From NCBI GenBank assembly GCA_026129095.1, contig JAHCIT010000003.1, positions 1-64,000 on the forward strand: a stretch of DNA of 64,000 nt, given 5' to 3'. Below are positions 29,779-64,000 of this stretch, piece by piece. Both the position numbers and the translations under genes were made by a program. This stretch comes from Deltaproteobacteria bacterium (lineage in GTDB: Bacteria; JAGRBM01; JAHCIT01). A model generated the notes under the pieces. It was given only the letters and a program-made list of their open reading frames with translations, had not been told where the DNA came from and did not search any database. Position 1 is the first letter of the stretch. Each line of letters starts with the position of its first letter.

Positions 29779-29782
29779 CCCG

Positions 29783-34415: not shown

Positions 34416-34431
34416 TGTGAGTTTCCTCACG
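34416..34431. promoter_or_regulatory. CRP/FNR-family-like box in an AT-rich intergenic region
   Basis: TGTGA-GTTTCC-TCACG matches TGTGA-N6-TCACA at 9 of 10 positions, preceded by an AT-rich flank. Confidence 0.4.
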
Positions 34432-34625
34432 TCTTATGTAACCGGCTGGAATGGTTTGATTTCGGCTGGCGCGGCGCGTCAGCAGGCTTGGGACAATGTT
34501 ATGAAAATGTTGGGGATCACACTCATTTTTCTTGAGTTTCGGGTATCCTGAGGATTATGTTCCTTCACATCGGTTTACAGTTCTTTCGGGGAAGGAAACC
34601 ATCCGGCGGAAGGATGCGAGTGGGA

Positions 34626-35096
34626 ATGAGAATTCTTGCCTTCGTTTTATTCACTGTAATCGGCGGGCTCGCCGTGAACGTGAACCTTGTGTTTGCCCAG
34701 TCCGCCGGGAAGGGCAAGGCAGACGCGAAGGCGGGCGCAAAACCGGCGGCCGATACCGGGAAAAAGGAAAAAGAAGTCGTCACGACCCGCTCTCGCTCGG
34801 GTGCTGTACAGTTCGAGGCCCTCCGCATTGAGACCGAAAAGGAAGGTCCAGGCGTCATCTTCATCGACAACTGGACGCCGAGCACGAAGCGCGAGTTTGA
34901 CGACGAAGCCAAGAGCGAACTGGACCGGGTGTTCATGGACATTCGCGGCCTGAACCGCTCATTCGACCGGCGCATCAAGCAGGCCCCCGATGTCACCCAA
35001 ATTCAGCGTGAAAATGCCGCTCGCGATGCCGAGCGGCGGCTCCTTTCCCTTGACCAGGGCCGGGTCAAGACCGACCGGGCAACTGTTCAGCGCTAA
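34626..35096 (+). CDS. Small secreted protein, GltF/CglF-like (alternative starts 34557, 34614)
   Basis: Signal peptide, then FEALRIETEKEGPGVIFI...RSFDRRI, which resembles the CglF motif. Lies between GltE-like and GltG-like genes. Confidence 0.55.
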   Translation: MRILAFVLFTVIGGLAVNVNLVFAQSAGKGKADAKAGAKPAADTGKKEKEVVTTRSRSGAVQFEALRIETEKEGPGVIFIDNWTPSTKREFDDEAKSELDRVFMDIRGLNRSFDRRIKQAPDVTQIQRENAARDAERRLLSLDQGRVKTDRATVQR

Positions 35097-35196
35097 CCCT
35101 TGAAATAGACACACGGTACGCAGTGCTCCGACTGGAGCGGAGCGTTACTTCGTCTTCATTTTGACGGCAAAAACACCGCCGAAGCCAGCGATTTCG

Positions 35197-35225
35197 TTGA
35201 CCCTTCCGGCGTCAGCCGCTAGGCT
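35197..35225 (+). promoter_or_regulatory. Putative sigma70 promoter of the gltG-like gene
   Basis: TTGACC-N17-TAGGCT, 36 nt before the ATG. Confidence 0.55.
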
Positions 35226-35261
35226 TGCCCGGAAGCAGTTCTCTTCGGCACTGGAAGCACG

Positions 35262-39850: not shown

Positions 39851-41950
39851 ATGCCACGCGGACCGGTACAGGATTTGTCAGGGCAGTGGACGCTGGAGGC
39901 GGGCGGCCGCCGTGGCGTTGCGGAAGTGCCGGGTCACTGGCAGATGTCGCCAGGATTCGAGACCCACACCGGCGTCGCCGTATATAGCCGCCAGATACGG
40001 ATGCCGCCCCGGCGAGAGGGCGAGCGCCGTTTTATCGTGGTTCGTGGCGCGTTCTACTACATCAAAGTGACCTTCGCGGGGGCCGTGCTGGGCACGGCGG
40101 AAGGCTACTTCATGCCCCATGCGTTTGAACTGCCTGATGGGGTAGACGAGGGCGAACTGCGGATCGAACTCAACTGTCCGGTTGAACGGGACAAGAACGC
40201 CAAGCGGATGATCACGGGGGTCTTTTCCCACTGGGATTGTCTGGACCCGGACAAGAATGCTGGCGGCCTGTGGCTTCCGGTGGAAATCCACCGCACCGGA
40301 ATCGTCCGTATCCGGAATGCGACGGTCCTGACTCATTCCATTGATCCGGAGAAGGGCGAAGCAGAGGTCGAGCTGCTCTGGGAACTGGATTCGATCCTGA
40401 TGGGGGCAGGGCGGATCGAGGCAGTATTGACGCCAGAGGGGTTTGCCGGTGATCCGGTCCGGATCGAAGCGGTTGTCGCCCTGCCTGCCGGACGAGACAT
40501 CGGATCGTCAGGACGGGTGAAGGTCACGGGCATTCATCCCTGGTGGACCCGTGAGATCGGCGAGCCCCGCTGCTACCGGGCGGCGGTCACGATCCATTAC
40601 GAGGGGACGGTTTCCGACCGGGTGGAGTTCACCACCGGATTCCGCACGTTCCGGTTCGACAACTTTATCGCATACCTGAACGGACGGAGGTTCTTCGTCC
40701 GGGGTTCCAACTATCCGCCCGGCGATGTGCGCATCAGCCGGATGAACCGGAAACGGTGCGAGCGGGATATCGAACTGGCGCTCCAGTGCAACTTCAACAT
40801 GCTGCGTGTCCATGCGCATGTGGACCACCCGGAGCTGTACGAGGCCGCCGACCGGGCGGGGCTGCTCATCTGGCAGGACATGCCGCTCCAGTGGCTCTAT
40901 GTGCCGGAGGCAGCACCTGAGATCGTTCGCCAGTCGGAGGAGATGGTCCGGCTCCTGGGCTCCCATCCGTCGGTCTCCGTCTGGTGCATGCACAACGAGC
41001 CCATCCATATCGTCGATACCAAGGAAACCCGCTGGACGGAACTGGGCAAGACCGTCTTTTCCCTCATGGTATTTTCGCGCAACCGCGAAGTCACCGCCAG
41101 CCGGAGCCGGCGGCATGTGCGGGAACTGGACCCAACACACCCTGTCGTGCGCAGTTCCGGGGAGATGACGCCGTTTTCTGGCGGCGAGGACGTCCATCTT
41201 TACTGGGGCTGGTATCCGTTTTTCGGCCGGAACATGCGCGGCCTGGAGCGTTTGCTGAACCTCATGCCCCGTTATGCCCGGTTCATCACGGAGTTCGGCG
41301 CGCAGTCCACTCCGGAGCCAGAACATGCCCGCACGTTCATGGGCGATGATATCCGCAAGGTGGACTGGAAACGGATGGAGCGGAACTTCCACCTTCAGGA
41401 CGAATTCCTGCGGTGCTGGCTAAAGCCGGAAGCATTTGAATCGTTCGAGGCGCTCTACGAGGCGAGCTGCGCCTGGCAGTCCTGGGTTCACCGCTATTAC
41501 ATTGACCGCTACCGCCGCCGGAAATATCACCCGGCTGGTGGCATTCTCCAATTCATGTTCCTGGACTCGGAACCCTGCATCCAGTGGACCGTGGTGGATG
41601 ATCGCCGGGTGCCGAAGCTGAGCTACTACAGGCTCGCTGATGCCTTCCGGCCCACCTATTTTTTTGCGCTGGCGGAGCAGGACTACCGGAAGGGGCGGGG
41701 GAGGATCCCGCTTTTCTGGGTGAACGACCGTCCGCAGCCGGTGGAAGGTCAACTCTCGGCCGTGCTGACGGGGCCGTCCGGCGAGGTAAGCCGCATACTG
41801 GACCGGAAACTGACGCTCCCGGCCGATTCCGAATGCGAATGGCTGCTTGATGTTCCGGTGCCGGGTGCCCCCGGCATGCATACGCTGACGCTCACGCTGG
41901 ATGACGGACATGGCCGGCTCGAAAATGTCTACAGCTTCGAGGTCAAATGA
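39851..41950 (+). CDS. Glycoside hydrolase family 2 (beta-mannosidase-like), no signal peptide
   Basis: RGSNY, NMLRVHAHV, YEAADRAGLLIWQD, acid/base WCMHNEP, nucleophile ITEFGAQ. Confidence 0.85.
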   Translation: MPRGPVQDLSGQWTLEAGGRRGVAEVPGHWQMSPGFETHTGVAVYSRQIRMPPRREGERRFIVVRGAFYYIKVTFAGAVLGTAEGYFMPHAFELPDGVDEGELRIELNCPVERDKNAKRMITGVFSHWDCLDPDKNAGGLWLPVEIHRTGIVRIRNATVLTHSIDPEKGEAEVELLWELDSILMGAGRIEAVLTPEGFAGDPVRIEAVVALPAGRDIGSSGRVKVTGIHPWWTREIGEPRCYRAAVTIHYEGTVSDRVEFTTGFRTFRFDNFIAYLNGRRFFVRGSNYPPGDVRISRMNRKRCERDIELALQCNFNMLRVHAHVDHPELYEAADRAGLLIWQDMPLQWLYVPEAAPEIVRQSEEMVRLLGSHPSVSVWCMHNEPIHIVDTKETRWTELGKTVFSLMVFSRNREVTASRSRRHVRELDPTHPVVRSSGEMTPFSGGEDVHLYWGWYPFFGRNMRGLERLLNLMPRYARFITEFGAQSTPEPEHARTFMGDDIRKVDWKRMERNFHLQDEFLRCWLKPEAFESFEALYEASCAWQSWVHRYYIDRYRRRKYHPAGGILQFMFLDSEPCIQWTVVDDRRVPKLSYYRLADAFRPTYFFALAEQDYRKGRGRIPLFWVNDRPQPVEGQLSAVLTGPSGEVSRILDRKLTLPADSECEWLLDVPVPGAPGMHTLTLTLDDGHGRLENVYSFEVK

Positions 41951-43539
41951 GCTCCCGGGTGATTGCGCTGTGCATGCTGGCAGCGGCGTGGATGTCCGTC
42001 GCCTGCACACCCGCCCGTGATCCGCATACGCTGATTGTCAATATCGGCACCGAACCGCCGTCGCTCGATCCGGCGCGGGCGACGGATCATGTATCGTTCA
42101 ATGTCATTGCGAACCTGCTGGCAGGGCTCGTGGAGTATGGTCCAGACTATTCACCCGAACCGGCGATCGCCGAACGGTGGGATATCCTCGACGGCGGCCG
42201 GTTGTACCGCTTTCACCTGAGGGAAGACGTGCGCTGGTCGGACGGCATCCCGCTGACGGCCCATGACTTCGAGTATTCCTGGCGTCGGGTTCTCGATCCG
42301 GATACCGCTTCTGACTATGCCTATCTGCTCTATGACATCGAAAACGCCCGTGAGCTGAACCAGCGGGAAATGGCCGGGATGGAAAAACTGGGAGTCCGGG
42401 CCGTCGATGACCGGACCTTCGAGGTCCGGCTCCGGAACCCCGTGGCCTACTTCCTTGCCATCTGCGCCTTTGAAATTACCTGGCCTGTCCGCCGCGACGT
42501 GGTGGACCGGGGGCCGGGATGGACGGAAGCGGGGCGATGGGTCTCCAGCGGTCCGTACCTGCTGAAGGAGTGGAGGCACGACTCCCATCTGGTGCTGGAG
42601 GCAAACCCCCACTATTTCGCCGGCGAGGCGCCCGTGAAGCGCGTGCGGCTGATCATGGTCAATGATCCGACGGCCGGGCTGGCCCTGTTCGACCGGGGCA
42701 TGCTCGATATCATCGACAACTACTCGCTGGCCGGAATCGACGTGCGGGAGATGTCACGTCATCCGAACTACCGCCGGGTGCCGCAGCTCCGGGGCTACTA
42801 CTACGGGTTCAACACCACGCGTCCACCGGTTGACGATGTGCGTGTCCGCCGGGCCATCGGACATGCCATTGACCGGACTGTATTTGACCGGGTGCTTCTT
42901 TCCGGGGAACGGGGTGCCACAGGCTGGATCCCGCCCGGCATGTTCGCTCATAACCCGGCCGCGGGTCTTCATTATGATCCGGAACGGGCACGGGCACTTC
43001 TCGCCGAGGCCGGATATCCCGGCGGCAAGGGGATGCCGCCCATCGAACTCCATTTCAATAACAGCGACCTCCATCTGCTGGTAGCGCAGGTGGTACAGGC
43101 GGTTCTCAGGCGCGAACTGAACATTCAGGTACAACTCCGGGCCGTCGAATGGAAAGTCTACCTGAACGAACTCCGCGAAGACCCGCCCGCCATGTACCGG
43201 ATGGGGTGGGGCGCGGACTATCCGGATCCCGACAATTTCATGAACCTCTTTACCGCCGCATCCGGCAACAACTTCACCCGTTGGGGTGATGCCGGATTCG
43301 ACCAGCTGATCGCCGAGGCGTCCATGAACCCCGACCCGGAGAGCCGCCGCGCCCATTACGACCGCTTGCAGGAGATACTGCTGGTGGAGGCGGCTGCGAT
43401 TATCCCGCTGTTCGTTACGTCTGAGAACACGGTCTTTGCCGATGGGGTCGAGGGGTTCAGCTACGACGGCTTTGCCCGCCTGAAACTGTTCCCTGTCCGG
43501 TTTGGCCCCGGCCGGAAAGCGGGAGGACGTATCCGGTGA
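41947..43539 (+). CDS. oppA: Oligopeptide-type ABC transporter substrate-binding lipoprotein
   Basis: Lipobox SVA-C, EPPSLDP, YRFHLR...WSDG...TAHDFEYSWRR, GWGADYPDPDNF. Confidence 0.88.
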   Translation: MSSRVIALCMLAAAWMSVACTPARDPHTLIVNIGTEPPSLDPARATDHVSFNVIANLLAGLVEYGPDYSPEPAIAERWDILDGGRLYRFHLREDVRWSDGIPLTAHDFEYSWRRVLDPDTASDYAYLLYDIENARELNQREMAGMEKLGVRAVDDRTFEVRLRNPVAYFLAICAFEITWPVRRDVVDRGPGWTEAGRWVSSGPYLLKEWRHDSHLVLEANPHYFAGEAPVKRVRLIMVNDPTAGLALFDRGMLDIIDNYSLAGIDVREMSRHPNYRRVPQLRGYYYGFNTTRPPVDDVRVRRAIGHAIDRTVFDRVLLSGERGATGWIPPGMFAHNPAAGLHYDPERARALLAEAGYPGGKGMPPIELHFNNSDLHLLVAQVVQAVLRRELNIQVQLRAVEWKVYLNELREDPPAMYRMGWGADYPDPDNFMNLFTAASGNNFTRWGDAGFDQLIAEASMNPDPESRRAHYDRLQEILLVEAAAIIPLFVTSENTVFADGVEGFSYDGFARLKLFPVRFGPGRKAGGRIR

Positions 43540-44483
43540 GACAGGTCGCACTTCGCCGCCTTCTTTTCCTGCCATTGCAGCTGCTCGCGGTGGCGAGCGT
43601 CTGCTTTTTCCTGCTCCGTGCGGCGCCGGGAAACCCCTTTGAAGGAGAACGAAAGCTCCCCGAAGCCGTCCTGAAGAACCTGGAGGAACGCTACCACCTG
43701 TCCGGTCCCTGGTACGAGCAGTGGTGGGCTTTCGTGGGCGGGACGCTCACGTTCGATTTCGGCGTTTCGCTCAAATACCGCGACCGGCCGGTCCGTTCGA
43801 TCATCGCCGAGGCCGCGCCAGTGTCATTTGCCCTGGGTTCCCTCGCCTTCGTGTTCGGGCTTGGGCTGGCGGTTGTGGCCGGGGTTGCCGGGGCGGCGCT
43901 GTCGGCGGACGTGCGCCTGAAGTTCGTGGACCGTCTGGTGATGACCAAGGCGTCGCTGCTCATTGCCGCGCCGAAATTCCTGCTGGGCGGACTTCTGGTT
44001 TATCTCTTTTCATTCAGGCTCCGGTGGCTGCCGCCCGCCCAGTGGGGGGATATTTCCCAGGTGATCCTGCCGGTGCTGACGCTCGCGCTCCCGGTGGCCG
44101 GGAGCCTGACGCTCCTCATCCGCAACTCCATGCTGGAAGTCCTGCAGAGCCGGTATGTCCAAACCGGCAGGGCCAAGGGGCTGGGCCAGTTGCGGCTGGT
44201 TGCCCTGCACGCGCTGCCGAACGCCATGCATGGTGTCCTGTCCTATCTGGGGCCGGTGTTTGCCACGCTGCTGACGGGCAGTTTCGTCGTGGAAAAGATA
44301 TTCGCCGTGCCGGGTATGGGCTGGCAGTTCGTCGCCTCGGTGATGGACCGGGACTACACCACGGTGCTCGGAGCGAGCGTCTTTTTTGCCGCGGTTCTGG
44401 TTCTGGCAAACCTCGTCGCCGACCTCGCAGCCGCCTGGATAGACCCCCGTTCGGGCGAGATTCCGGGGGAGGACGTGGCATGA
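43536..44483 (+). CDS. oppB: ABC transporter permease, OppB-like
   Basis: APGNPF, DFGVS, RAKGL, GSFVVEKIFAVPGMG, DRDY. Confidence 0.88.
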   Translation: MRQVALRRLLFLPLQLLAVASVCFFLLRAAPGNPFEGERKLPEAVLKNLEERYHLSGPWYEQWWAFVGGTLTFDFGVSLKYRDRPVRSIIAEAAPVSFALGSLAFVFGLGLAVVAGVAGAALSADVRLKFVDRLVMTKASLLIAAPKFLLGGLLVYLFSFRLRWLPPAQWGDISQVILPVLTLALPVAGSLTLLIRNSMLEVLQSRYVQTGRAKGLGQLRLVALHALPNAMHGVLSYLGPVFATLLTGSFVVEKIFAVPGMGWQFVASVMDRDYTTVLGASVFFAAVLVLANLVADLAAAWIDPRSGEIPGEDVA

Positions 44484-52024: not shown

Positions 52025-53245
52025 ATGAAGCTCGATCCCATCGCGCTCGCCATCCCGTTTTTCTTCCTGCTGATCGGCATCGAGATTGTGGTCATGCGGC
52101 GCCAGGGCCGGAGGCTGTACCGGTTCGCCGATACCATCGCCTGCCTGAGCTGCGGCATCGGCTCCGAAGTCGTGAGGATATTCCTGGGACTTGCGGGGCT
52201 TCTGGCCTATTCATGGGTCTACGGGAATTTCCGGCTGCTTGACCTCGCGTCCTATCCGGTGGCCGCCTGGGTGATCGGCTTTATCGGGGTGGATTTCTTC
52301 TACTACTGGTTTCACCGCCTGAGCCACGAGATCAATGTGCTTTGGGCCATGCATGTGGTCCATCACCAGAGCCAGGACTACAACCTTGCCGTCGCCCTGC
52401 GGCAGTCCTGGTTCCAGGGGTTTGCCGCGACACCGATCTACTTCCCGCTGGCCCTGATCGGCGTTCCCCCGCTGGTTTTCGCCGGCTGTGCGGCGGCAAG
52501 CCTTTTGTACCAGTTCTGGATCCATACACGGACGATCGGGCGCCTGCCGGGCTGGTACGAAGCGGTAATGAACACCCCTTCGCACCACCGGGTCCATCAC
52601 GGCATCAACCCGGAATACATCGACCGCAACCATGCGGGTGTATTCATCGTCTGGGACAAGCTTTTCGGAACTTTCGAGCCTGAAGGGGCGGAGCCTGTCT
52701 ATGGCACGGTGAAGCCGTACGCGAGCTGGAACCCCGTGTGGGCGAATTTCGACTACTGGCGGGATCTGCGGGACCGGAGCCGGAAGATCAGCCGGCTTGC
52801 CGACCGGCTTCATCTGTGGTTCGCGGACCCGGCCTGGCAACCGGCCGAACTGGGCGGCCCGCAACCGGCCCCGCCGGTCGAGGCGAGCCGGTTTGTGAAA
52901 TGGGATACGCAGTTTCCGCACCGCTACAAGGCCTATATCAACTTCCACTTTGTGAGCGTCGGGCTGGGCCTGACACTGATGCTGCTATTCCGGGAAGTGC
53001 TCGGCTGGGCCGCCGTGTCGGTAATTTCACTTCTCGTCGTCGTGACAACGGCGGTTTGGGGCGGCCTGATGGAAGATAAAAGCTGGGCCCGCCCGGTGGA
53101 GTGGTTCCGGCTCGCAGCAATCGGGGCGGTTGCCACCGGCGCACTGTTCATGGGCTATCCGGCGGCGATGGCCGCCGGACTGGGGCTGGTGGCGCTGGCC
53201 GGGATGATCTGGTTCCCCCGTCTGTCAGCGGCGGGTATCCGGTAA
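52025..53245 (+). CDS. Sterol desaturase / alkylglycerol monooxygenase-like di-iron membrane enzyme
   Basis: His boxes YYWFHRLSHE, HVVHHQS, QFWIHT, TPSHHRVHHG, plus WDKLFGTF. Confidence 0.88.
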   Translation: MKLDPIALAIPFFFLLIGIEIVVMRRQGRRLYRFADTIACLSCGIGSEVVRIFLGLAGLLAYSWVYGNFRLLDLASYPVAAWVIGFIGVDFFYYWFHRLSHEINVLWAMHVVHHQSQDYNLAVALRQSWFQGFAATPIYFPLALIGVPPLVFAGCAAASLLYQFWIHTRTIGRLPGWYEAVMNTPSHHRVHHGINPEYIDRNHAGVFIVWDKLFGTFEPEGAEPVYGTVKPYASWNPVWANFDYWRDLRDRSRKISRLADRLHLWFADPAWQPAELGGPQPAPPVEASRFVKWDTQFPHRYKAYINFHFVSVGLGLTLMLLFREVLGWAAVSVISLLVVVTTAVWGGLMEDKSWARPVEWFRLAAIGAVATGALFMGYPAAMAAGLGLVALAGMIWFPRLSAAGIR

Positions 53246-53267
53246 TCTGTCTGTCTGGACCTGGCAG

Positions 53268-53693
53268 CTAGATATCCATCAGCCCGAACTTCCGGAGCTT
53301 GGTGGAAAGTGTGCTTTGAGGAATCCCAAGCGCCTCTGCCGCATCGCCTTTCTTGCGGTGCAGTGTCAGGGCTCGCTGGATCAGTTCCTTCTCGGTCATT
53401 TCCAGATGTTCGGGAAGCGATAGCCCCTCCTGGACCTGGACCGGTTGCGCCTTCAGGTCACGCAGGGCAAGCTCGGCATGCGCCAGTTCGGTAACCACTG
53501 TGGGCGTCAGCGCCTCGTGCTGCTCAACGAGCCAGTTGACAAACCCCTTGGCAATGGACGGGTCGACCATGCAGGTCGGCGCAATGCGCGAAAGCGTCTG
53601 GAACAGATCCTGGACACGGTTCGCTGGAATACTGAACTTCGATATCGAAACCATCTGGTTAAAGCTGGTTTCAAGCTGGTGATCGGTGATCAT
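53268..53693 (-). CDS. Small protein with a C-terminal Fis-type HTH
   Basis: LPEHLEMTEKELIQRAL...KGDAAEALGIPQSTLSTKLRKFGL. AAGGTG SD before the ATG. Confidence 0.75.
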   Translation of the reverse strand: MITDHQLETSFNQMVSISKFSIPANRVQDLFQTLSRIAPTCMVDPSIAKGFVNWLVEQHEALTPTVVTELAHAELALRDLKAQPVQVQEGLSLPEHLEMTEKELIQRALTLHRKKGDAAEALGIPQSTLSTKLRKFGLMDI

Positions 53694-54016
53694 CTGTACA
53701 CCTTTTCCGGATCAAATATGTCAGGTCCGGCATTATTTCGGATGCCTGGAGGCCGACCGTGCTGGTATCTGGTTCCCCGGCTCGAAATCATTGCCGGACG
53801 GAAAGATAGCAGGACGTAGGGTCTCCGGAAAGCATGAAGCCCCAAAATAGCATGCCATGTGCATTTTTCGGGGAATGGTGGCTTTCTCCTTATCAGAGAA
53901 CGCCTTGTGAGAACATCTTGCCGCATCATTTCGAACCATTGGGTGCACTGTTTTAATGGACGAGATTTATCTTTCTTGGGTCGAGGACGAGATGACGATT
54001 TTGCATGTGTCCCATC

Positions 54017-57000
54017 TCACGTTTCGTCTCCGAGCCACGTCGAAACCTTGACGAACCGGTAGCCGCGGTCGCGCCATTCGTCGATCAGGCGCGGAAGATG
54101 AAGACCGACCGAATCGTCGATCGGCCTGCGTGTACCTAGATGCATCAGGACGATCCCCCCGTTTACCCCTGCTTTCGACTGCCGTTCGAAGTCGAGCAAC
54201 CGGTCGATGATCTTGGCGCCCGGCTGGTAGTTGCGGTCACTCCGGTTGATCACCCAGTCCAGCGAATCGAGCGTCAGGCTTCGCGTGTAGTCGCGGGTCC
54301 ATCCGACATGCCGGTAGCCGAGTTCGTGCGCCCAGCGGAGAATCTGGGCGTTTACTTCGCCGTACGGGGCCCTCCAGATTTTCGCCATCTGCACGCCGGT
54401 GATCTCCTCGAATCTGGCTTCGGGCCGGAGAAGCTCCTCGTTGAACCACTCTCGGGTGACTTCCGGGCGTGTGTCATGGCGGTTGTTCTGTTCGTAGGTG
54501 GTGAGGTGGGGATGTGTCTGGGTGTGGTTGCCCACCTCATGCCCGTCCTGGACCATCTGGCGGACGAGTCCGGGGTTTTCATCCATGAATTTGCCCGTGA
54601 GAAAGATGGTGGTCTGGATCCGTTTCTGCCGGAGCGTATCGAGAATGACCTCGGCCCCCTCGGCGCTGTCACCGTCGAAAGTAAGGCCGATCTCACGCCG
54701 GTCGGTGGGACCGCGTTCGATATTCAACTCCCGGATGGCCGGGCGGGGTGGGGTGAGCCTGGCAGCGGCAGCGGGGGGGTGCCGTATGATCTCGCCGGTT
54801 ACGGGCGGCGAAAACCCCTTGCCAGGGGTAAACGACCACAGTTCGAAACGGTGCGTACCCGTTTCCGCCGGAATCCGGTCGAAGAGAAACTTCCCGCCCC
54901 GGACAGGGACGGCGGCGAAGAATATCCCGTCAAGGTGAATGACGGCGCCTCCGGCCTGTTCGGCACGCCCAGCGATCGATACCGTGTCAGCTTGGGTCTG
55001 GACCGGAATGGGAATGTCGAGGACCGGAGCCGGGAGCGAGGCGGCCACCGCCCCCGGTGTGAACAGGTCGGCCTGGCCGGGAGCGAGCAGGGCGAGCCGC
55101 TCCTCGATACGGGACTGCCGCCAGAGCAGGGCCGTCAGGCCCGCGAGGACCAGGATTGTGATCGCTGCGGCAGCCACCCAGAGCTTCTGGTCGCCTGGAA
55201 CGGGCTGCCGTGGCTGCTGACCGCTGCCTGCGCCGAGTGATTTTTCAATACGATGAAGAACGCCGATCACCTTGGAACTGGCGTCTCCGGCCGGTTCCGC
55301 AGGGACGGACCGGCTCCGGGAAATAGTTTCCACGGCCGCAAGCACGGACTGGATATGCTGTTCCTGCCGCTGGAGCCGCCTTTCGATGTCGTCCTGCAGT
55401 TTTTTCAGATGACCGGTGGAGTCGCTCCGGGCGGCAAGGGCAGCAAGATCAGCCTTGTAATGGGCCTGTCCGGACTGGATTTCCGCCTTGAGGGTATCGA
55501 GCGATTCCCAAAGCCGCCTTTCCCGGTCCTCGCCGTGCTGCGGTGACGGCTGACTGGCCAGCTTTCCCTCGATACGGGTGAGCAGGTTCGCCAGTTCTGC
55601 CGTGCGGCCGCTTTCGGCGAGCACCTTGCGGACGGCGGTGTCGAACGACCGCGAGAGACTCACGGTTTCCGCACGCAGGGCGGCGAGTTCGCTCCGTACA
55701 GCATCGTCGCCGGCAGGAGCCTGGCCATTGGCAGCAGCAGATGATGCCGATGGACCCAGGGCCGCTTCCAGTGACCGGATGCGTGTCCGGTGGCTTTCAA
55801 GAAGCTGCTCGTAACGCCGGACTTCCTCGCTCTGGTTGCCCACCAGTTCCGAGAGGAACTTCTCCCGTTCGCCCAGAAGCTGTTCCAGGCGGGTAATTTC
55901 CTGCGTGCGGTCTTCATGGACCTGGGCTAGCCGCCGGAGCTGCTCCTCGACGGATGCGACTCCGGTTTCGATACGTTCGGAAAGATGCCTGGAAGCCTGT
56001 TCGCGCAGGGCGCTGAGTTCGCTCCGGGCCGCTTCGGCTTCGCCGAGCGCACGGGCCAGTTCACCTTCGCGGCCTTCCAGAAGTGCTGCGAGCCGTTCCC
56101 GCTCGGACAGTAGGTGCGAAGCCTCGGCCCGGAGTGTCGCCGCCATGCTGTCCAGTTCGGCGATCCGGCCCTCCCGGCGTGCCAGTTCGCCTGCGGTTTC
56201 TGCACGATCCTGTTCAACGGCGGTGGAGAGTTCGGCTGCCCTCGCCTCGAAATGCCGGGCCCGCTCCTGCGCCCCCGAAAGGCTTGCCTGCAAGCGGGCA
56301 ATCTCGGCATTCAGTTCGGCCGCCTGCCGGGCAGCGGCATCGAGCGCCGCAATGCGCTCCCGGCGTTCGGACTCCAGTTCCTGTGACAAGGTGGAAATCC
56401 GCTGCTGAAGCCCGTCTGCCTCGGCGGCGGAAGAGGCAAGGCGGGCCTCAAGGGAGGCAAGCCTCTCATGGGCGGTGCGAAGGGCGGCTTCGCCGGAATC
56501 AATCCGGCGGCGGGCCTCCATCCGCTCGGCAGCAGCAGTGCGGGCGAGTCCGGCCAGTGCCCGTTCCCGTTCGGCAAGCTGCGTGCCGGCTGCCGAAAGA
56601 AGGCCGTCGAGACGGCTGACTTCGCGTTCCAGCCGGATCGCGGTCTGCTGGTGGGTTTCGCGGGCGGCGGCCGCCTGTTCCAGTTCACCCGCGAGCCGGG
56701 CCCCGTCTGCACGCTGGAGGGATATCTCCTCCCGGAGGGCTGATATCTGCTGTTCCAGCCGGGTGGCCGCGTCGCGGCTGGCGGCCAGCTCGGCGCCCAG
56801 TTTTTCCCGTGCGCCTGTCAGCGTCGTGATCTCGCGGTGGAACTGCTCTGCCGCCGTCGCTGACTGGGCTGTTGCTTCCCTGAACCGGGCTTCACTGGCG
56901 GCAAGCTGATCTGTGGCAGCGGCCAGTTCCCGGGACTTTTCGTCGCGGGCCGAGATGGCTGCGGCCCGTTCGCCAGCGAGCTGTTCGATCTCCTGGCTAC

Positions 57001-57157
57001 GTCCCGCCAGTTCCGACTGGAGCTGCCCGATCATTGCCAGGGCTTCGGCCCGTTCCCGGGAAGACTCGCGGGCGAGCCGGGCAAGAAGTTCTTCGCGCCC
57101 GGCCAGTAGCCTGGCGAGGCGGTCGATTTCTTCGTGAGTCCGGTCGTTATCGGTCAT
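54017..57157 (-). CDS. Long coiled-coil, TM, Ig-like and polysaccharide deacetylase (CE4/NodB) fusion
   Basis: About 650 aa of heptad-rich E/R/A/L sequence, TM LWVAAAAITILVLAGLTALLW, CE4 motifs LTFDGD, GNHTQTHPHL, WRAPYGE, DSLDW, IVLMH. Confidence 0.85.
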   Translation of the reverse strand: MTDNDRTHEEIDRLARLLAGREELLARLARESSRERAEALAMIGQLQSELAGRSQEIEQLAGERAAAISARDEKSRELAAATDQLAASEARFREATAQSATAAEQFHREITTLTGAREKLGAELAASRDAATRLEQQISALREEISLQRADGARLAGELEQAAAARETHQQTAIRLEREVSRLDGLLSAAGTQLAERERALAGLARTAAAERMEARRRIDSGEAALRTAHERLASLEARLASSAAEADGLQQRISTLSQELESERRERIAALDAAARQAAELNAEIARLQASLSGAQERARHFEARAAELSTAVEQDRAETAGELARREGRIAELDSMAATLRAEASHLLSERERLAALLEGREGELARALGEAEAARSELSALREQASRHLSERIETGVASVEEQLRRLAQVHEDRTQEITRLEQLLGEREKFLSELVGNQSEEVRRYEQLLESHRTRIRSLEAALGPSASSAAANGQAPAGDDAVRSELAALRAETVSLSRSFDTAVRKVLAESGRTAELANLLTRIEGKLASQPSPQHGEDRERRLWESLDTLKAEIQSGQAHYKADLAALAARSDSTGHLKKLQDDIERRLQRQEQHIQSVLAAVETISRSRSVPAEPAGDASSKVIGVLHRIEKSLGAGSGQQPRQPVPGDQKLWVAAAAITILVLAGLTALLWRQSRIEERLALLAPGQADLFTPGAVAASLPAPVLDIPIPVQTQADTVSIAGRAEQAGGAVIHLDGIFFAAVPVRGGKFLFDRIPAETGTHRFELWSFTPGKGFSPPVTGEIIRHPPAAAARLTPPRPAIRELNIERGPTDRREIGLTFDGDSAEGAEVILDTLRQKRIQTTIFLTGKFMDENPGLVRQMVQDGHEVGNHTQTHPHLTTYEQNNRHDTRPEVTREWFNEELLRPEARFEEITGVQMAKIWRAPYGEVNAQILRWAHELGYRHVGWTRDYTRSLTLDSLDWVINRSDRNYQPGAKIIDRLLDFERQSKAGVNGGIVLMHLGTRRPIDDSVGLHLPRLIDEWRDRGYRFVKVSTWLGDET

Positions 57158-57593
57158 GGATGGATGTGGGCCTGGTATGGCCCCTGATTTCCTTAACTAT
57201 CCAAATCTGCAAAAACAGTATGATTCCTCGGTAAGGTGGCCGCAATTAGACACCATCGCCTCTGACTCACCGCGTTGGCCGTTTGTCTTGGAAAAGTGAT
57301 TTAAATCCTTTAAATGCTTGAACAATTCGCGTGTAATCATTCGTAACGGTGTTACCTGCTTTGGTTATGGGGGACCATAATAGTGACCATGGGTAACTTT
57401 CCGAAGGTGCGAAGCGGCACAGGTTCCTGGCAGAACTTCGCACGGTAGACGCCGGAATGCGTCCGGAACGGTAAATGGGGCTCAAAGGCCGGTCAGGATT
57501 TTCCGGCCGGGTCTTTGCAGGCTGCTGGTATTCAGGCGTGAAACCAGAACAGTTGAGCAGGAAATCAGGTTTCTTTTTCAGGGAGAGTGTCCG

Positions 57594-60500
57594 ATGTCAG
57601 TAATCAGTATTCAATGCAGGCATGCAACGCCGGTTGCGGTGCTGGCGAACCTGTTGAGGCGGTTCGGGCTGGCCGCAACCGCCGCAGTCTGGGTACTCGC
57701 CGGCTGCGGCGGCGGAGGCGGGACAACCACCCAAACGGTAACCAGGACAGTGACGCGTGACGTACCGCGCAATGTGGTTTTTGGACTCACCACGACGCCC
57801 GCAGTTCACACCTGCACCGGGCCGACCAGCACCTGCATAGCCAATGGCCTCGACCAGTACCAGATATCTGTGACCGTTTCGGTTGATGGCGACGCCCCCG
57901 GAACGCAGGCGCCAGTGGCGCTGATCGTGACAGCACCCGAAGGAGCCCGCATCCACACGGATTCGGCGGCGGGCGCTCCCGGCTACCAGCAGACGACGGT
58001 CGCCGTCATTCCGGATGGACCGGCGACGATCGTTTATGTCCGCGCCACGTCGAATGGAACCTATACGGTCGAGTTCTCCCACCCCGATGCGGACAACCCC
58101 AATCTGGGCACGCTGGTCCGGATGGTTCCCGATCTCGCCTTCATTGCCGATCCCAATGTCCCGGTCGAGGTGGAGTTCTTCGAGGCGCTTGGTTTCGTGC
58201 CGGCCTTCGGCGGCACCACCACGGTCAAGGCGCGTCTCAAGAACGGCGAGGGCGACGTGATTACCGGCGCTGCGGCAGGACTGTTCCAGATCGCATTCAC
58301 GTCAGTCACCGATCCGCTTGGATATTTCGATCCAGCTAATGGGATAGCCGTTCCATCCACGGCAGACGGAGTTGCAGAAGTCCAGTTTGGTACACTCGCA
58401 ACCTATCCCGACGGCGGAACCATCACGTTGCGAGCCTCGCTGGTGGGGACGGCCCTGCACAATGACCGGCAGGTGACGATATTCGAGAACCTCGGTGCGC
58501 CGATCTATGCTGAATATGGCGTGATCTCGCGGGTAGCTGGTTCGCTTAACCCTCCGGCTCCGGCCCCTCCGGCCCTCCTTCCCCCTTCTCTCTCCTATCT
58601 GGCCAATGCTCCCGGCGGACTGGATGGATTTACCGGCAAGGATCTGAACCGCGCCGATACGTTCAGGCTGCAGGTCCGGGTTGTGACGGCGGACGAGTTC
58701 GCCCAGGGCGTGTCGTGCAACGCCCTCACGCCGGGCGAAGGAAATGTCGTCTGCATGCCTGGCAATGTTAACATGCAGATCGACTGCCTCGCCAACGACG
58801 AACTGGTCGCCGCTGCGGCCTGCCAGTTCTCCGCCAATCCCGACGGACCATGGCAAGCCAGTCTAACCATCAACTGTGGCGATGGAGATCCGAATACTAC
58901 TGATACCTGTATCGGGGAGGTGTATCTCAAGATCGTATCCAATTCGGTCAAGGCCCGTTCTGCCAGCGGGTTTACCAAGATATTCCCGAGCCTGCGCGTC
59001 CAAACCATCGGTTCCATCTCGACAATCCCGACCCTGAACCGCCGGTACGATGACCAGGCGGCTGTGACGCCTACAAACCCGACATGGAATTCGAGGACAT
59101 TCGCTGGTGTCAGCGTGGCGGGCGAGGAAAATCGTCTCCGGCTTCGCCCGGATATCTTGCTGCCGTTCATGGTGAAATGGGTCGAGCCGGTGACAGCCAG
59201 TGCGCCCACGGGCGGCTGCCAGATCATCCAGGGCGGCACGGGCAACCAGCGGATCGTCAAATGCACGGAAGATCCGTCCAAATATGCGTCGGTCTGCTTC
59301 GGCGAAGGGGCGGCGAACTTCAATCAGGGAACCTGTTCCTTTGAAATCCTGAACAACCGCTGCTCGCCGACTGAAGTGTTCCGGAGCGGCGTATGCACGG
59401 GCGGGGCCGGTGACGTGCCCCGCATTCCGCTCCGGCTGGAACTGCTGCCCTCCACCTGCCGTTCGGTGGCGGATCTGACGGACAATCCGGGTGACTGCTA
59501 CCGGCAGGTACTGACCGAGGGCGGACTGCCGTCGAAGGTCAAGCTCGATTTCACCTATCTGGGACTGCAGGCGCAGCCGCCCTATGTCGTCCGTTCGGCG
59601 GGGCTGTTCCACAACTCCTCGGTTGCCGTGGGCGGCCAGGACAACATCAACATTGCTGAAGATATCGCGGCGGGATGGTTCCCGCTGGACAACGACATCG
59701 CGGAGTCCGGTTCGACGTTCCTGCTCCCGCCGCTGGTCAGCTCGACACCTGCGAATCCCTACCGTGTCCGGCTGGAGGTGGAGCCGGTTTCCTCCGGCAC
59801 GACGGGGCTGAACAAGGAAGAGCAGAACGTGATCGTCAACCCCGGCTGCTTCGCGCCGGCATCTGTGACCTGCACCCGGACCACGACGGCCGGAGGCCCT
59901 GCCTGCCTTCAGCCACCGGCTAACCGGATTCAGGCGAACAACAACGCGGACAATGCCAGTTGCGCCCGCTTCTCATGTGAAGTCAAAACCTTCGGCCAGC
60001 TTTTTCCCGATACGGCGGTGGATAGCCAGGTGATGTGCCCCGCGGCGAGCGGGCCGTATGTCCTTCCGGATGACGCCAACTACCAGATACGTTTTATTGA
60101 CGTGGGCCGGACGGTGGCCGGTGACGAGCCGGTGGGTGATCCCGATGGGCAGGAGATAGACGCTGATGGAGGCGCCGGGGAATCGAATGGTGTCGAGGTC
60201 CAGTTCTCGGAGTCGGGATCATTCCCGGCATCCAACAACTTCACAGCCCAGAACCAGACGGTCAATGTCGTTGGCGGGTTTGCCCATGTCTATGCCCGCG
60301 TCCGGAGCACCAGCCGGGCCAATGACCAGACAGCGAACATGATCGCCCGGCTGCGTTACACGGGTGGCAGCATCCAGCCAGCCACGCTGCTGCAGCAGCA
60401 GTTCAGCATGATCGTGAATCCGGACGGGACGCTGCCCGGCCAGGTGACGATCACGTTCCACCGGCCGAGCGAAGTCGTCGCGGGAACAGTCAACACGGAC

Positions 60501-61424
60501 CCGATCCGCTCGCGCCACGCGGCGCTCGATTCAAGTTTCGCCGCCGCGTTTGGGATTACGACTGACGGAACGGTCAATGACTACCGTAACCAGACGCTGT
60601 TCTCGAAGGTCGCCCGCGTCCGGGTCCAGCGGCTGAACGGGTCCGACTACAACGGCACCGCTGTCGGGATCACTTTCGCGCTGTCCGGTTCTTCCGGTTC
60701 CCTGTTCCGTAACGACGGAGCCAACAACAACTGCCAGACGACCGCACCCGCATCTCCAGTCACGACATCGCTGGTCAGTTCCGCCCAGACGGCCTACGCC
60801 TGTGTCGTGTCGGATGGCAACGTGACCCTGGCGCCGAATGTGAACGCCACGACGACTGTCACTGCCACGCTCGCCAACTGCCCTGTCGCCAAGCAGCCGC
60901 TTTGCCAGACGACCGGCAACGTGAACGTCCGCAGCGTCCGGCGGCAGGTGACTTACCGTTTCCCGATGACGCGGACGAGCGGCACCGGTGCGGTTGATTT
61001 CGCCGGATTTACACTGAAAGCGTTCTTCAACGACCAGAACATCGCCTACGTGGCGGGAACGGCCACCGGCCAGGATATCCTGTCGTCGCTCGGGACGATC
61101 CAGAGCAACGTGTTCGGCACGAACGAACTGCGCGTCCTCAAGTCGGCCGGTGACAACGACTATCTGTTCCCGTCGGGCAGTCCCGGCAGCCGGGACGTGA
61201 TCCAGACGATCTTCCGGATCAGGGAACAGTGTGCGTCCGCTGCCTGTGCCTTGCTTGCCGATCGAGTCGCGTATGATCCGGCGGCGGGGGAAATCACGTC
61301 GGTTCCCATTGGCACCGGCAACTCGGAGATATTCAGATACAACGCACTGGGTGAACCTGTCGCGGCAACGCTCAGGTTTGATCCTCCGTCTGGTGTCCAT
61401 GCGGCACTGAACTACGGGCAATGA
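57594..61424 (+). CDS. Large Cys-rich surface lipoprotein with Ig-like domains and a C-terminal cohesin-like domain
   Basis: Lipobox VLAG-C then GGGGG, beta-rich T/V/G/P composition, Big_1-like VKARLKNGEGDVI...STADGVAEVQF, about 30 Cys, C-terminal DFAGFTLKAFFNDQNIAYV...VIQTIFRIR. Confidence 0.75.
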   Translation: MSVISIQCRHATPVAVLANLLRRFGLAATAAVWVLAGCGGGGGTTTQTVTRTVTRDVPRNVVFGLTTTPAVHTCTGPTSTCIANGLDQYQISVTVSVDGDAPGTQAPVALIVTAPEGARIHTDSAAGAPGYQQTTVAVIPDGPATIVYVRATSNGTYTVEFSHPDADNPNLGTLVRMVPDLAFIADPNVPVEVEFFEALGFVPAFGGTTTVKARLKNGEGDVITGAAAGLFQIAFTSVTDPLGYFDPANGIAVPSTADGVAEVQFGTLATYPDGGTITLRASLVGTALHNDRQVTIFENLGAPIYAEYGVISRVAGSLNPPAPAPPALLPPSLSYLANAPGGLDGFTGKDLNRADTFRLQVRVVTADEFAQGVSCNALTPGEGNVVCMPGNVNMQIDCLANDELVAAAACQFSANPDGPWQASLTINCGDGDPNTTDTCIGEVYLKIVSNSVKARSASGFTKIFPSLRVQTIGSISTIPTLNRRYDDQAAVTPTNPTWNSRTFAGVSVAGEENRLRLRPDILLPFMVKWVEPVTASAPTGGCQIIQGGTGNQRIVKCTEDPSKYASVCFGEGAANFNQGTCSFEILNNRCSPTEVFRSGVCTGGAGDVPRIPLRLELLPSTCRSVADLTDNPGDCYRQVLTEGGLPSKVKLDFTYLGLQAQPPYVVRSAGLFHNSSVAVGGQDNINIAEDIAAGWFPLDNDIAESGSTFLLPPLVSSTPANPYRVRLEVEPVSSGTTGLNKEEQNVIVNPGCFAPASVTCTRTTTAGGPACLQPPANRIQANNNADNASCARFSCEVKTFGQLFPDTAVDSQVMCPAASGPYVLPDDANYQIRFIDVGRTVAGDEPVGDPDGQEIDADGGAGESNGVEVQFSESGSFPASNNFTAQNQTVNVVGGFAHVYARVRSTSRANDQTANMIARLRYTGGSIQPATLLQQQFSMIVNPDGTLPGQVTITFHRPSEVVAGTVNTDPIRSRHAALDSSFAAAFGITTDGTVNDYRNQTLFSKVARVRVQRLNGSDYNGTAVGITFALSGSSGSLFRNDGANNNCQTTAPASPVTTSLVSSAQTAYACVVSDGNVTLAPNVNATTTVTATLANCPVAKQPLCQTTGNVNVRSVRRQVTYRFPMTRTSGTGAVDFAGFTLKAFFNDQNIAYVAGTATGQDILSSLGTIQSNVFGTNELRVLKSAGDNDYLFPSGSPGSRDVIQTIFRIREQCASAACALLADRVAYDPAAGEITSVPIGTGNSEIFRYNALGEPVAATLRFDPPSGVHAALNYGQ

Positions 61425-61450
61425 TGAGGAAACCGGAGAGGTAACGGCAC

Positions 61451-64000
61451 ATGAAGATGCTCCTCGCGGTCCTCAGGAAATGGCGGCCGCCCCATTTGAA
61501 ATCCAGAACAAGACTGGCGCTCCTGCTGGTCCTGCTCGCCGCGCCCCTCCGGGCGGAGGCCGCCGGCCTGTTCGGCGACGTCTATCCGCGTGGCGCGCCG
61601 GACGGCATCGTCAGCCTGGGCGACCTGCTGCTGATCCGTGCATTTGCACTTGGCGTAACGGTCCCGACCGAGGCCGAACTCAACGCCGCTAATGTCTTCC
61701 CGCTGTCGCTTTGCATCACCTGCCTTCCGAATGAGGTCAGGTTCCCCGATTTCGCAACCCGGTTCATCGGGGGCAATGACACGAATGCTAACGATCCGGG
61801 CGACATTACCATCGCCGACGTGCTCGTGATCGAGAAGGTCATCTTGGGCCAGATCATCCTGGGTTCGGGCCTTGCCCTGAACACGGTCGGGGCCATCAAC
61901 CCGTCGAGCGGCGACACTTTCGGCGGAACGGTGGTGTCGATCAGCGGTAATGGATTTGCCGTGGAGCCTGGGCAGAAGCTCAGGATCAGTTTCGTGTTTC
62001 ACAACGACGGAGGCCCGGCTGACCGGGTCGAATGCGTGATTCCGCAAGGCGTCTCGCCAGCCACCGTTGACTGCGGGCTTCCCTTTTCGGTTATCTCAAT
62101 CACCAACAACACCATACAGGTGACGACCCCGGACGCATCCGGCCTGATCGAAGCGGGCGCGTTCGAGATCAGCGCCGCCATCCAGGTGGCGGTTCTGGAC
62201 GCGGATGACATCGTCATCCAGGCGACGACTGACGCACTCACTGCGGGCAATTCGTTCACCTTCGCCCGAGGCGCGCTCCAGATCATCGCCATCGGTGGCG
62301 AGGACCAGGCAGGCTTCCCGCTGATCGAGCTTGGCGTGCCGCTGGAAACGTTCGTCTACGATTTCGTTCTGCAGTCGCCGGCCACTTCAAATACGCCCGA
62401 TCCGCTGGCAGCGCCATACGTGACTTTCGTGGTGGATATTGTCGATCACTGCCCGGCGCTGCTGAATGACTCCGATTTCGAGATGATATTACCCATTAAC
62501 GATCTGGGCCGGACACAGATAAGGGTGACGCCGCTGGCCGACTGTCCGTCGCACCAGGTTCGCGTTACGGCGACCGTTACCAACCTGTTCTCGTTCCCGA
62601 TCATACCGGTCACACAGACCACCTTCGTGATCCCGGTCGCCGAGGCGGACCAGGGCGTTCTTCAGGTCGTGTCCGGGGCGGGGCAGATTTGTCCGTACGA
62701 CACGACCTGCTCGCTGGACCTGACCGCGGATACTCCGGTGCCGGAGCCGATGGTCGTCAGCATCATCGACCGGTTCGGGCAGCCGTTCATCGGCACGATC
62801 AATGTGAACTTTGCCGACCAGCCGTTTGGTTTCGGCGGCCGGACCGGAAACCTGACCGATCCGGTCATGGCGCAGGGGACCAGTACGGCCTGCACCGGCA
62901 CTGACATCAACAAGGATTGTTCGGCTGTTACCAATGTTCGCGTGAACTTTACCACGGGCGGATCAACGGACCCTGCGCTGAACAGTGCCGAATACGTCGT
63001 CCTGGCAACGGCCATAGGCAACCCGTCGCCGGGAACGTTCACCAATGCGACACCGATCATACCGGCCGGCGGAGTGACCTTCCGGATCCGGGCCGAACGC
63101 CCGGTGGGGACCACGATCGAATACGCTGACCCGGCGCTGGCCGACCGCGAGGCGGACCTGGTCAACGATATGGGGCCATTCGCGATGGGCGTGAAGGTCC
63201 GCGACCAGTGGGGGCGGCTCGCCACCAGCCAGGTCAACGTGCCGAACTGCGTGACCTATACAGCGCAGATGCCGGGCTTCACGTCGCCCCCCACGATTTC
63301 GATGACCGGCGGCAGCACGGTGAACTGCCCGGGTGACCAGCAGGTACCGCCGAACAAGCTTTCGGTCGAGGCGCCTGCCGGGACCGTTACGGAGAGCCTT
63401 GAGTTCGTGAGTGGTTCCCAGGGCGGGGTTATCACGGTGAGGGCGGCTATTACGTCACGGCCCGGTGCACTGGTGGACTTCCGGTTCGCCCTCGGCCTCT
63501 CGAACCGTCCGCCGCCACCAGTGAACCTCTCCCGGGTCATGGCCAGCCACCAGATACAGAACAGCCTCCCGGCGGCCCCGGACGGGACGACAGTCGGCAG
63601 CTTCCTCGTGCGTGGAGCGTTGGGGGCAGTCCGCAAATCGGAGGACGACACGGCGCCGTTTGGCAGCGGCACTCCGCCGACATTCACCCGCTATTCGGTC
63701 AGCGTGACCGACGGCGGGGCGATCACCGGCTGCGGGAATGTCAGTAATGGCATTACCGGCGGAGTAGGGCTGGATGGTACCGGCGACGTTGACCAGGGCC
63801 GTTTCGAGGTCGTGCTGACACCGCCGCCCACTACCGGCCAGCTTGCCATCAGTGTGTGGGATAACCTGAACTGCTCCGGCGAGCAGTCAGTCCCGAAGCT
63901 TATCGGATACACGAGCCGGTTCGATACCGGATACGTCTCCAACCGCTCCCGGTCGCAGCTCGACAAGCTGAGTCTGGATTTCTCCACGCCGGCACCCACG
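61451..64000 (+). CDS. Large secreted protein (partial, at least 850 aa) with N-terminal dockerin-like domain, IPT/TIG and Big_1-like Ig domains; not in the supplied ORF track
   Basis: Translated by hand: GGAGAGG SD, ATG 61451, signal peptide ...LALLLVLLAAPLRAEA, GDVYPRGAPDGIVSLGDLLLI...GDITIADVLVIEKVILG, INPSSGDTFGGTVVSISGNGF, LQVVSGAGQ...PMVVSIIDRFGQP. No in-frame stop up to base 64000. Confidence 0.85.
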   Translation, partial: MKMLLAVLRKWRPPHLKSRTRLALLLVLLAAPLRAEAAGLFGDVYPRGAPDGIVSLGDLLLIRAFALGVTVPTEAELNAANVFPLSLCITCLPNEVRFPDFATRFIGGNDTNANDPGDITIADVLVIEKVILGQIILGSGLALNTVGAINPSSGDTFGGTVVSISGNGFAVEPGQKLRISFVFHNDGGPADRVECVIPQGVSPATVDCGLPFSVISITNNTIQVTTPDASGLIEAGAFEISAAIQVAVLDADDIVIQATTDALTAGNSFTFARGALQIIAIGGEDQAGFPLIELGVPLETFVYDFVLQSPATSNTPDPLAAPYVTFVVDIVDHCPALLNDSDFEMILPINDLGRTQIRVTPLADCPSHQVRVTATVTNLFSFPIIPVTQTTFVIPVAEADQGVLQVVSGAGQICPYDTTCSLDLTADTPVPEPMVVSIIDRFGQPFIGTINVNFADQPFGFGGRTGNLTDPVMAQGTSTACTGTDINKDCSAVTNVRVNFTTGGSTDPALNSAEYVVLATAIGNPSPGTFTNATPIIPAGGVTFRIRAERPVGTTIEYADPALADREADLVNDMGPFAMGVKVRDQWGRLATSQVNVPNCVTYTAQMPGFTSPPTISMTGGSTVNCPGDQQVPPNKLSVEAPAGTVTESLEFVSGSQGGVITVRAAITSRPGALVDFRFALGLSNRPPPPVNLSRVMASHQIQNSLPAAPDGTTVGSFLVRGALGAVRKSEDDTAPFGSGTPPTFTRYSVSVTDGGAITGCGNVSNGITGGVGLDGTGDVDQGRFEVVLTPPPTTGQLAISVWDNLNCSGEQSVPKLIGYTSRFDTGYVSNRSRSQLDKLSLDFSTPAPT

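Follow-up and report, generated by a model that had tools for sequence, protein, structure and literature searches.

Introduction

Cohesins and dockerins that serve outside cellulosomes are known across bacteria and archaea (PMC9012536). In Archaeoglobus fulgidus, the cohesin of one of the products of ORF2375 and ORF2376 binds the dockerin of the other strongly and specifically, in a system without a cellulase (PMC9705933). For the syntrophic sulfate reducers HotSeep-1, Seep-SRB1g and Seep-SRB2, and for anaerobic methanotrophic (ANME) archaea, an adhesin with immunoglobulin (Ig) domains and adjacent cohesin and dockerin domains has been proposed to act in cell attachment (PMC10553843, PMC9012536). 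Here, we describe two adjacent genes, A and B, at the end of a 64,000-nucleotide (nt) stretch of DNA from a Deltaproteobacteria bacterium (assembly GCA_026129095.1, contig JAHCIT010000003.1, positions 1 to 64,000 of the forward strand; hereafter the window). With some reservation, we favour reading their products as a two-gene, non-cellulosomal tether, in which a cohesin-dockerin contact holds an adhesin-like protein to an outer-membrane lipoprotein.

Other described systems share parts of this layout. The planctosome of Nemodlikiaceae, a hypothetical outer-surface assembly, includes an anchoring protein of 2,210 amino acids (aa) with one cohesin (PMC6461901), and a hypothetical cellulosome-like complex has been placed on the outer surface of the diderm Ca. 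Stygibacter (PMC8542988). Reported diderm cases also include Saccharophagus, planctomycetes, Cloacimonadota, Omnitrophota giants and the syntrophic sulfate reducers. In the anchoring step of cellulosomes, a single-cohesin surface anchor binds a dockerin-bearing scaffoldin (PMC12484212). Ruminococcal cohesins that are invisible to hidden Markov models (HMMs), recognised by AlphaFold2 (AF2) only and bearing extra helices or hairpins, have been documented as well (PMC13463774).

The A-B gene pair

A preliminary description of this DNA had proposed that a 1276-aa lipoprotein with a LAG-C lipobox ends in a cohesin-like domain, and that a second open reading frame (ORF), starting 26 nt further on, begins with a dockerin-like stretch at 61574-61849. 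All of the C-terminal motifs quoted for A are present, TYRFPM beginning at residue 1120 (nt 60951), and B and its dockerin-like stretch lie as quoted. The cohesin and dockerin calls were made independently of each other; together they are the two halves of a known pair, situated at the facing ends of adjacent genes. The absence of B from the earlier ORF list fits a 3′-open ORF, the type that a plain caller omits. As a full-length stand-in for B we used P0012 (2279 aa), which is 98% identical across all 850 residues in the window; other relatives have 2289-2332 aa. Both ORFs are judged to be more than chance because of their coding-type G+C content at third codon positions (0.74 and 0.79), their intact homologues at 41-62% identity, and the loop-helix self-match and repeat conservation described below.

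Three relatives of A, at 95, 52 and 41% identity, were found with its last 377 residues as query (8000 candidates scored), and full-length B retrieved four proteins of 2279-2329 aa. A genome scan yielded three related loci (L001, L002 and L003). Adjacency of the homologous genes, on which the preliminary description had staked its proposal, holds in all three: A is followed by B after 24, 14 and 14 nt, respectively (14-26 nt over the four loci including the window). As in the window, a divergent coiled-coil/polysaccharide-deacetylase gene lies ahead of A in each of them, and in the two loci that reach far enough B (2289 and 2332 aa) is followed by pyrG and rpoN, as named from their translations. 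A profile of A's last domain, run against 1.84 billion representatives, returned three family members and one further match, P0009, a Ser/Pro/Glu-rich repeat protein that we regard as spurious (hhalign probability 7.9%). As far as sequence can tell, the A-B family consists of about four lineages found, all uncultured.

The dockerin-like module of B

The mature N-terminus of B is very probably a degenerate dockerin. Dockerin_1 is the sole Pfam family in the corresponding segments of L001-L003, at 15.5, 17.5 and 15.0 bits against a gathering cut-off of 22.9. When the first loop-helix is compared, without gaps, with every 19-residue stretch of the same protein, the second loop-helix scores highest in all four full-length B proteins (BLOSUM scores of 29, 38, 38 and 31 against 22, 24, 27 and 16 for the next-best match). 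Mean pairwise identity is 84% in repeat 1, 83% in the middle helix and 79% in repeat 2, compared with 61% for B overall and 55% for the insert described below, and repeat 1 falls within the top 0.5% of windows of its length for conservation. Invariant positions, in the numbering of the dockerin segment, are D7, D15, G16 and D22, and N45, N78, D79, G81, D82, T84 and D87. The Asp that closes the calcium loop is D58 in the first repeat and D123 in the second (residues of B). An AF2 model (predicted local distance difference test, pLDDT, 39.5) places helices at 56-66, 74-79 and 121-136, three in dockerin order. Foldseek with this model ranked dockerin chains, recognised by title and length, first and second of five rows at non-significant E-values of 1.5 and 2.7; a wide fold search gave 37 rows, none of them a dockerin and all with Z below 3. 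The hydropathy of two of the helices (up to 1.96) would also allow them to be read as membrane spans, a reading that we rejected because each holds invariant charged residues.

The two repeats are not symmetric. An insert, its length and its cysteines C88/C91 invariant in all four proteins, appears to lie inside the second calcium loop; we read the register of the repeats such that ANVFPL and GDVYPR correspond. In canonical dockerins, two symmetric EF-hand-like motifs permit dual binding (PMC12484212). The asymmetry that the split second loop confers on the B module suggests, therefore, binding in one orientation.

When the dockerin profile was also run against longer proteins (192-2000 aa, 8000 candidates), two matches were obtained. 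One, P0006, appears to be a chimera in which a permease is joined to part of a B protein, and we set it aside. The other, P0007, is a secreted protein with an Lcl_C domain and a doubled dockerin-like motif at its C-terminus (59% over 27 columns); being without a Pfam dockerin match, it was not accepted as a validated dockerin anchor. Its motif raises the possibility of a broader dockerin subtype, so far unrecognised, whose loops contain proline.

The cohesin-like domain of A

The last domain of A is probably cohesin-like, a view that rests on modelling. The best AF2 model of residues 1114-1276 (pLDDT 58, predicted template modelling score 0.55; the other four models 35-46) is a nine-strand sandwich with one short helix, which follows the putative sixth strand in a low-confidence region, where type II cohesins carry one. 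In a wide fold search of 48,161 representative chains, cohesins account for eight of the nine best chains (Z 3.6-4.6), for 14 of the best 20 and for 16 of the 50 rows listed; their Z-scores are 3.2-4.6 overall, and their alignments span 103-115 residues. The best match is 6kgc_A (Z 4.6, root-mean-square deviation (rmsd) 4.1, 113 residues aligned). Chains within complexes were assigned by length, and 3kcp, which also appears among the rows, we take to be a cohesin entry. In conservation, the first 39 residues of the domain rank among the highest 1.6% of windows.

Evidence for pairing and against it

Co-folding of the two modules, which the preliminary description had proposed, was done with calcium and gave a score of 0.32 against 0.05 for the best of three controls; at least 96% of contacts are common to the runs, and the pLDDT of the partners is at least 85. 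The mark is reached by 116 of 157 solved pairs and by 2 of 215 mismatched pairs, a calibration that holds roughly; at scores of 0.60 or below it is reached by 18 of the 157 solved pairs and by both mismatches, which makes ours a weak pass. This pass may reflect likeness to solved cohesin-dockerin complexes. Modelling weakly suggests, then, that the dockerin-like module of B binds the cohesin-like domain of A.

A number of observations weigh against a cohesin-dockerin pair. Pfam Cohesin matches none of the four C-terminal segments of A at E-values up to 10 (subject to HMMER filters), the dockerin segment of the window and both of its halves have no Pfam match, and no module reaches its family cut-off. 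Compared with canonical dockerin calcium-loop spacing, both calcium loops of B depart from the textbook pattern, with about 4 extra residues in loop 1 and about 30 in loop 2. With alignments of four sequences to build on, AF2 gave models of low quality for both modules (pLDDT 58 and 39.5). The fold Z-scores of the A domain lie below 7-8, the level that the tool calls common, Foldseek with the A model gave no match, and a second look at the top 1000 had no cohesin among the 50 rows listed. Finally, the four loci form one small clade with common flanks, and the adjacency of A and B appears for that reason to be inherited rather than independent evidence. The preliminary dockerin call is supported at modest strength, by the duplication in four of four proteins and by Dockerin_1 as the only match in three of four segments; the cohesin call has modest support from the fold ranking and none from a Cohesin HMM.

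The alternative that survives best, although we consider it unlikely, is that the last domain of A is a carbohydrate-binding module (CBM) or another sandwich of the cohesin/CBM2/CBM3 fold group, and that the dockerin of B binds a cohesin elsewhere or nothing. CBM2-like and CBM3 chains reach Z 2.9-4.1 in the wide fold search, within 1 Z unit of the cohesins, and the CBM-like N-terminal domain of a GH20 protein reaches 4.1; CBM-like and other sandwiches lead the second look, and a polysaccharide deacetylase as conserved divergent neighbour would suit a carbohydrate-binding partner, as would the missing Cohesin match. Against this, cohesins outnumber CBM-like chains at the top of the fold ranking, and the co-fold with the B module exceeds, weakly, the control in which A was replaced (0.05). 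A CBM2 would be expected to show an aromatic face that includes Trp. There is no Trp in the last 165 residues of any of the four A proteins, and the domain had no CBM HMM match in the Pfam scans. In PDB sequence searches, neither single sequences nor four profiles, that of the A domain among them, found a significant match, and an Atlas search with the C-terminal domain gave no usable match.

Architecture of the two proteins

A has the signal pattern of a lipoprotein. Its lipobox occurs as LAG-C, GAG-C, VTG-C and AAG-C in the four lineages, and G-C-G-G is invariant there in four of four aligned homologues and also in L002. Besides the lipobox cysteine, 28 further cysteines of A are invariant in all four (29 in total), and 30 are invariant in B, sets that fit oxidised, exported proteins. 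The whole of A has no Pfam or NCBIfam family; the first segment of its stalk shows a weak, below cut-off match to Big_1 (E 0.021), and an invariant acidic loop, DGxExDADG, lies at residue 851, its DADG core being present in all four A proteins. BLASTP revealed neither similarity between A and B nor internal repeats.

In B, the dockerin-like module is followed by a TIG domain, which is also found in L002 (28.3 bits) and L001 (19 bits), and by a stalk without a Pfam match in three window segments. The preliminary description saw B as an Ig-repeat protein, which suits about the first 815 residues; beyond them the distal half probably consists of beta-propellers with calcium-type loops, two propellers by our reading. 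Twelve blade-like motifs could be picked by hand from residue ~820; scored in leave-one-out fashion against windows of the stalk, a comparison biased by the picking, 10 of them rank in the top 5%. Two acidic loops of DxxGD type recur in all four B proteins. For the matching part of the L001 B protein, Atlas leads point to a cluster of Myxococcota lipoproteins (0.85) and to YncE/lactonase propellers (0.83), at low recognition and with the family on 41% and 17% of cluster members; the best PDB sequence match with B is a Kelch propeller at a non-significant E of 0.5. Scans of the whole of B with Pfam and NCBIfam found no cohesin or dockerin, and its segments contain no catalytic family, haem motif, C-terminal hydrophobic anchor or barrel match. 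The positions of all features are collected in Table 1.

Table 1. Features of the A-B locus and its upstream region (positions in the window).
Feature	Position	Strand	Description and basis
Divergent neighbour	54017..57157	-	NodB-type polysaccharide deacetylase behind a coiled coil of about 650 residues and a single membrane span, with an Ig-like part; Polysacc_deac_1 E 7e-29
Conserved non-coding block upstream of A	57296..57381	+	GATTTAAATC palindrome, invariant TGTAATCATTCGTAA (GTAA direct repeat, 10-nt period), CATAAT
ORF A	57594..61424	+	1276-aa Cys-rich predicted lipoprotein; stop ends at 61424
Lipobox LAG-C	57696..57707	+	Residues 35-38 (Cys38), followed by GGGG/Gly-rich linker; +2 residue Gly; from sequence
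Stalk of A	57741..60932	+	About residues 50-1113; rich in beta structure, with probable disulfide-bearing Ig-like domains
Cohesin-like domain of A	60933..61421	+	Residues 1114-1276; AF2 model and wide fold search
Ribosome-binding site of B	61435..61442	+	GGAGAGGT within the 26-nt gap; similar purine runs in the L001-L003 gaps
ORF B	61451..64000	+	First 850 aa, open at window end; secreted protein of about 2280 aa
Predicted Sec signal peptide of B	61451..61561	+	Basic start, hydrophobic core, A-x-A; read from sequence
Dockerin-like module of B	61571..61858	+	Residues 41-136; loop-helix, short helix, loop-helix at mature N-terminus
Insert in second calcium loop	61706..61789	+	About 28-30 residues with invariant CxxC; placement by repeat register
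IPT/TIG (Ig-like) domain	61892..62155	+	After the dockerin; Pfam TIG 23.4 bits, cut-off 20.9
Beta-rich stalk of B	62267..63895	+	About residues 273-815; probably further Ig-like domains, from composition and conserved Cys pairs
Start of probable beta-propeller half	63929..64000	+	First blade motif GYVSN; remainder beyond window

A proposed two-gene tether

Narrow profiles run in six frames over the window and the three related loci found one cohesin-like copy in A and none in B, and no second cohesin or dockerin. Among the Pfam families listed for 41 other window ORFs (the best five for 13 of these), there are no other cohesins or dockerins. No glycoside hydrolase or other catalytic family was detected in A or B in Pfam/NCBIfam scans, segments included, in agreement with the preliminary description; its term 'scaffold' is overstated, because a single cohesin-like and a single dockerin-like module were found. 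The combination that marks a cellulosome, a multi-cohesin scaffoldin with dockerin-bearing glycoside hydrolases, was not found at the A-B locus.

From these elements a mechanism can be proposed. Judging by their signal sequences, A and B would both be exported through Sec, and A would be lipidated at Cys38 and then delivered to the outer membrane, with a disulfide-rich stalk of ~1060 residues that ends in one cohesin-like domain, its fold as modelled. B would be secreted with no anchor to hold it in a membrane, and the single dockerin-like module with which its mature form starts may bind the cohesin of A in a calcium-dependent, one-to-one manner, for which the model offers weak support. A type II secretion system would be our guess for the route taken by both proteins. 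The disulfide-clamped insert that splits the second calcium loop would probably restrict binding to one orientation. The long rod could then hold the calcium-loop-bearing beta-propeller half of B away from the cell, where it would most likely act as an adhesin or binding head rather than as an enzyme. The location of the complex on the outer-membrane surface and its adhesive function are what we infer from this arrangement.

A different outcome, which we think quite unlikely, is that A and B belong to a larger assembly, such as an S-layer-like coat or a multi-client display, with A as its anchor and B as the first of its clients, or that the propeller half of B is a hydrolase that escaped recognition, comparable to those of planctosome- or amylosome-like systems. 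The resemblance of that half to lactonase/YncE clusters, at the level of a lead, would accommodate an enzyme, and published non-cellulosomal diderm systems are read as degradative (PMC6461901, PMC8542988); the single copy of each module that narrow profiles found in the window and the three loci, a GH2 enzyme in the window without a dockerin match, and the lack of a detected catalytic family in any B segment all speak against it. We regard as highly improbable a further possibility, an envelope strut that remains periplasmic or attached to the inner side of the outer membrane and that may act on peptidoglycan together with the neighbouring deacetylase. In its favour, a lipobox by itself is no proof of surface exposure, neither an export signal nor a gene for a transporter could be seen next to A and B, and the deacetylase has a common intergenic region with A in all four loci. 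Against it, some 3500 residues of Ig-like and propeller structure, calcium-type loops included, would be usual for surface proteins and probably too large for the periplasm, and Pfam scans detected no peptidoglycan-binding domain.

The tether reading can be extended, into a proposal that we consider doubtful. A and B would represent an HMM-invisible cohesin-dockerin family of a Myxococcota-like lineage with gliding-type genes, forming a two-piece surface fibre that grips prey or surfaces, with a 2280-residue double-propeller head on a lipid-anchored stalk and the insert serving as a one-way, force-bearing or releasable lock. If this were true, cohesin-dockerin coupling would be a hidden, general way for diderms to display giant secreted proteins.

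Upstream region, neighbours and host

The block upstream of A can be aligned in all four loci. It contains an invariant 15-mer at 57332-57346, which is unique in the window (0.02 expected) and recurs exactly in the three related loci (L001 9641-9655, L002 9695-9709, L003 1589-1603). The block is a probable promoter with a regulator site, although a sigma-70 scan did not call a promoter in it. Its 10-nt repeat period recalls the boxes of winged-helix response regulators, and it could control A-B, the deacetylase, or both. Because of this conserved box, and because pyrG has a separate promoter-like site of its own behind B in both loci that include it, A and B probably form a two-gene unit. Rfam gave one chance-level match over 53200-64000, inside A.

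The deacetylase neighbour has an equivalent in L001 (46% identity) and L002, and its N-terminal part in L003; its unusual layout is possibly that of a polar or cytoskeleton-linked wall-editing enzyme. Downstream of it, at 53268-53693 (-), lies a 141-aa protein with a C-terminal Fis-type helix-turn-helix, and a similar reading seems, by eye, to be present in L002 near 4769-5434. Outer-membrane barrels and a TonB-like protein whose C-terminal AgmX/PglI domain scores above cut-off in the window, together with Pal in L001, point to a diderm host of Myxococcota-like type; a diderm host had already been supposed.

Elsewhere in the window, 27072-36761 (+) encodes three tetratricopeptide repeat proteins, two small exported proteins and the GltG-like TonB protein with the AgmX/PglI domain, and resembles the gliding-motility clusters of myxobacteria and Bdellovibrio. 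Divergent from it, at 24770-27016 (-), is a 748-aa ORF with no Pfam/NCBIfam match at E 0.01. A beta-propeller protein of NHL/teneurin type is encoded at 17566-18930 (-), with a lipobox-like LVAC after an internal start. At 39851-44483 (+), the GH2-family glycoside hydrolase, which has no dockerin match, is located directly 5′ of an oligopeptide-type ATP-binding cassette transporter.

Significance and comparison with known systems

If the binding is real, A and B would constitute a cohesin-dockerin pair that is highly divergent and probably orthogonal, that carries an unusual calcium-loop insert, and that might find use in designer scaffolds. They would also offer a clean one-to-one case for the role of non-cellulosomal cohesins and dockerins, and would suggest how a diderm can retain a giant protein that it secretes when neither an autotransporter nor a C-terminal anchor is at work. 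The modules would be an example of cohesin and dockerin modules outside Firmicutes that escape Pfam. The reach of these points is limited by the size of the family, which is tiny, with four lineages found, all uncultured. The open literature, as distinct from subscription journals, contained no paper on it in our searches.

Like A and B, the Archaeoglobus genes are consecutive ORFs, and the cohesin 2xdh aligns to the A model (Z 3.6, 104 residues, rmsd 4.8). That pair is archaeal and much smaller (dockerin 432-506, cohesin 29-162), and its binding has been shown (PMC9705933). The A-B modules, by contrast, fall below HMM cut-offs and sit on long stalks, and their binding is weakly suggested by the co-fold. 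The syntrophic sulfate reducers resemble the A-B host in being diderms of the deltaproteobacterial type. Unlike those of A and B, the modules of these bacteria and of ANME archaea were found by standard domain libraries (PMC10553843, PMC9012536). The layout of a lipoprotein stalk with a giant propeller protein is not in the main-text descriptions of these two reports, whose supplementary tables may hold closer cases. No sequence link of A or B to their cohesin-dockerin proteins was found.

The planctosome and the Stygibacter complex have adaptor or multi-cohesin scaffoldins, and dockerin-bearing peptidases or hydrolases (PMC6461901, PMC8542988), whereas A-B has one cohesin, one dockerin, no detected enzyme and a predicted lipid anchor. 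With the anchoring step of cellulosomes it has in common the logic of an anchor plus client; it differs in having no multi-cohesin scaffoldin, CBM3 or glycoside hydrolases, in its diderm host, and in the use of a lipoprotein rather than an S-layer homology (SLH) or sortase anchor. Non-cellulosomal cohesin-dockerin pairs, including those in adjacent genes and in diderm hosts, are therefore already known. The novelty of A-B lies in its sequence family, in the splitting of a calcium loop, and in the layout of a lipoprotein stalk with a giant head.

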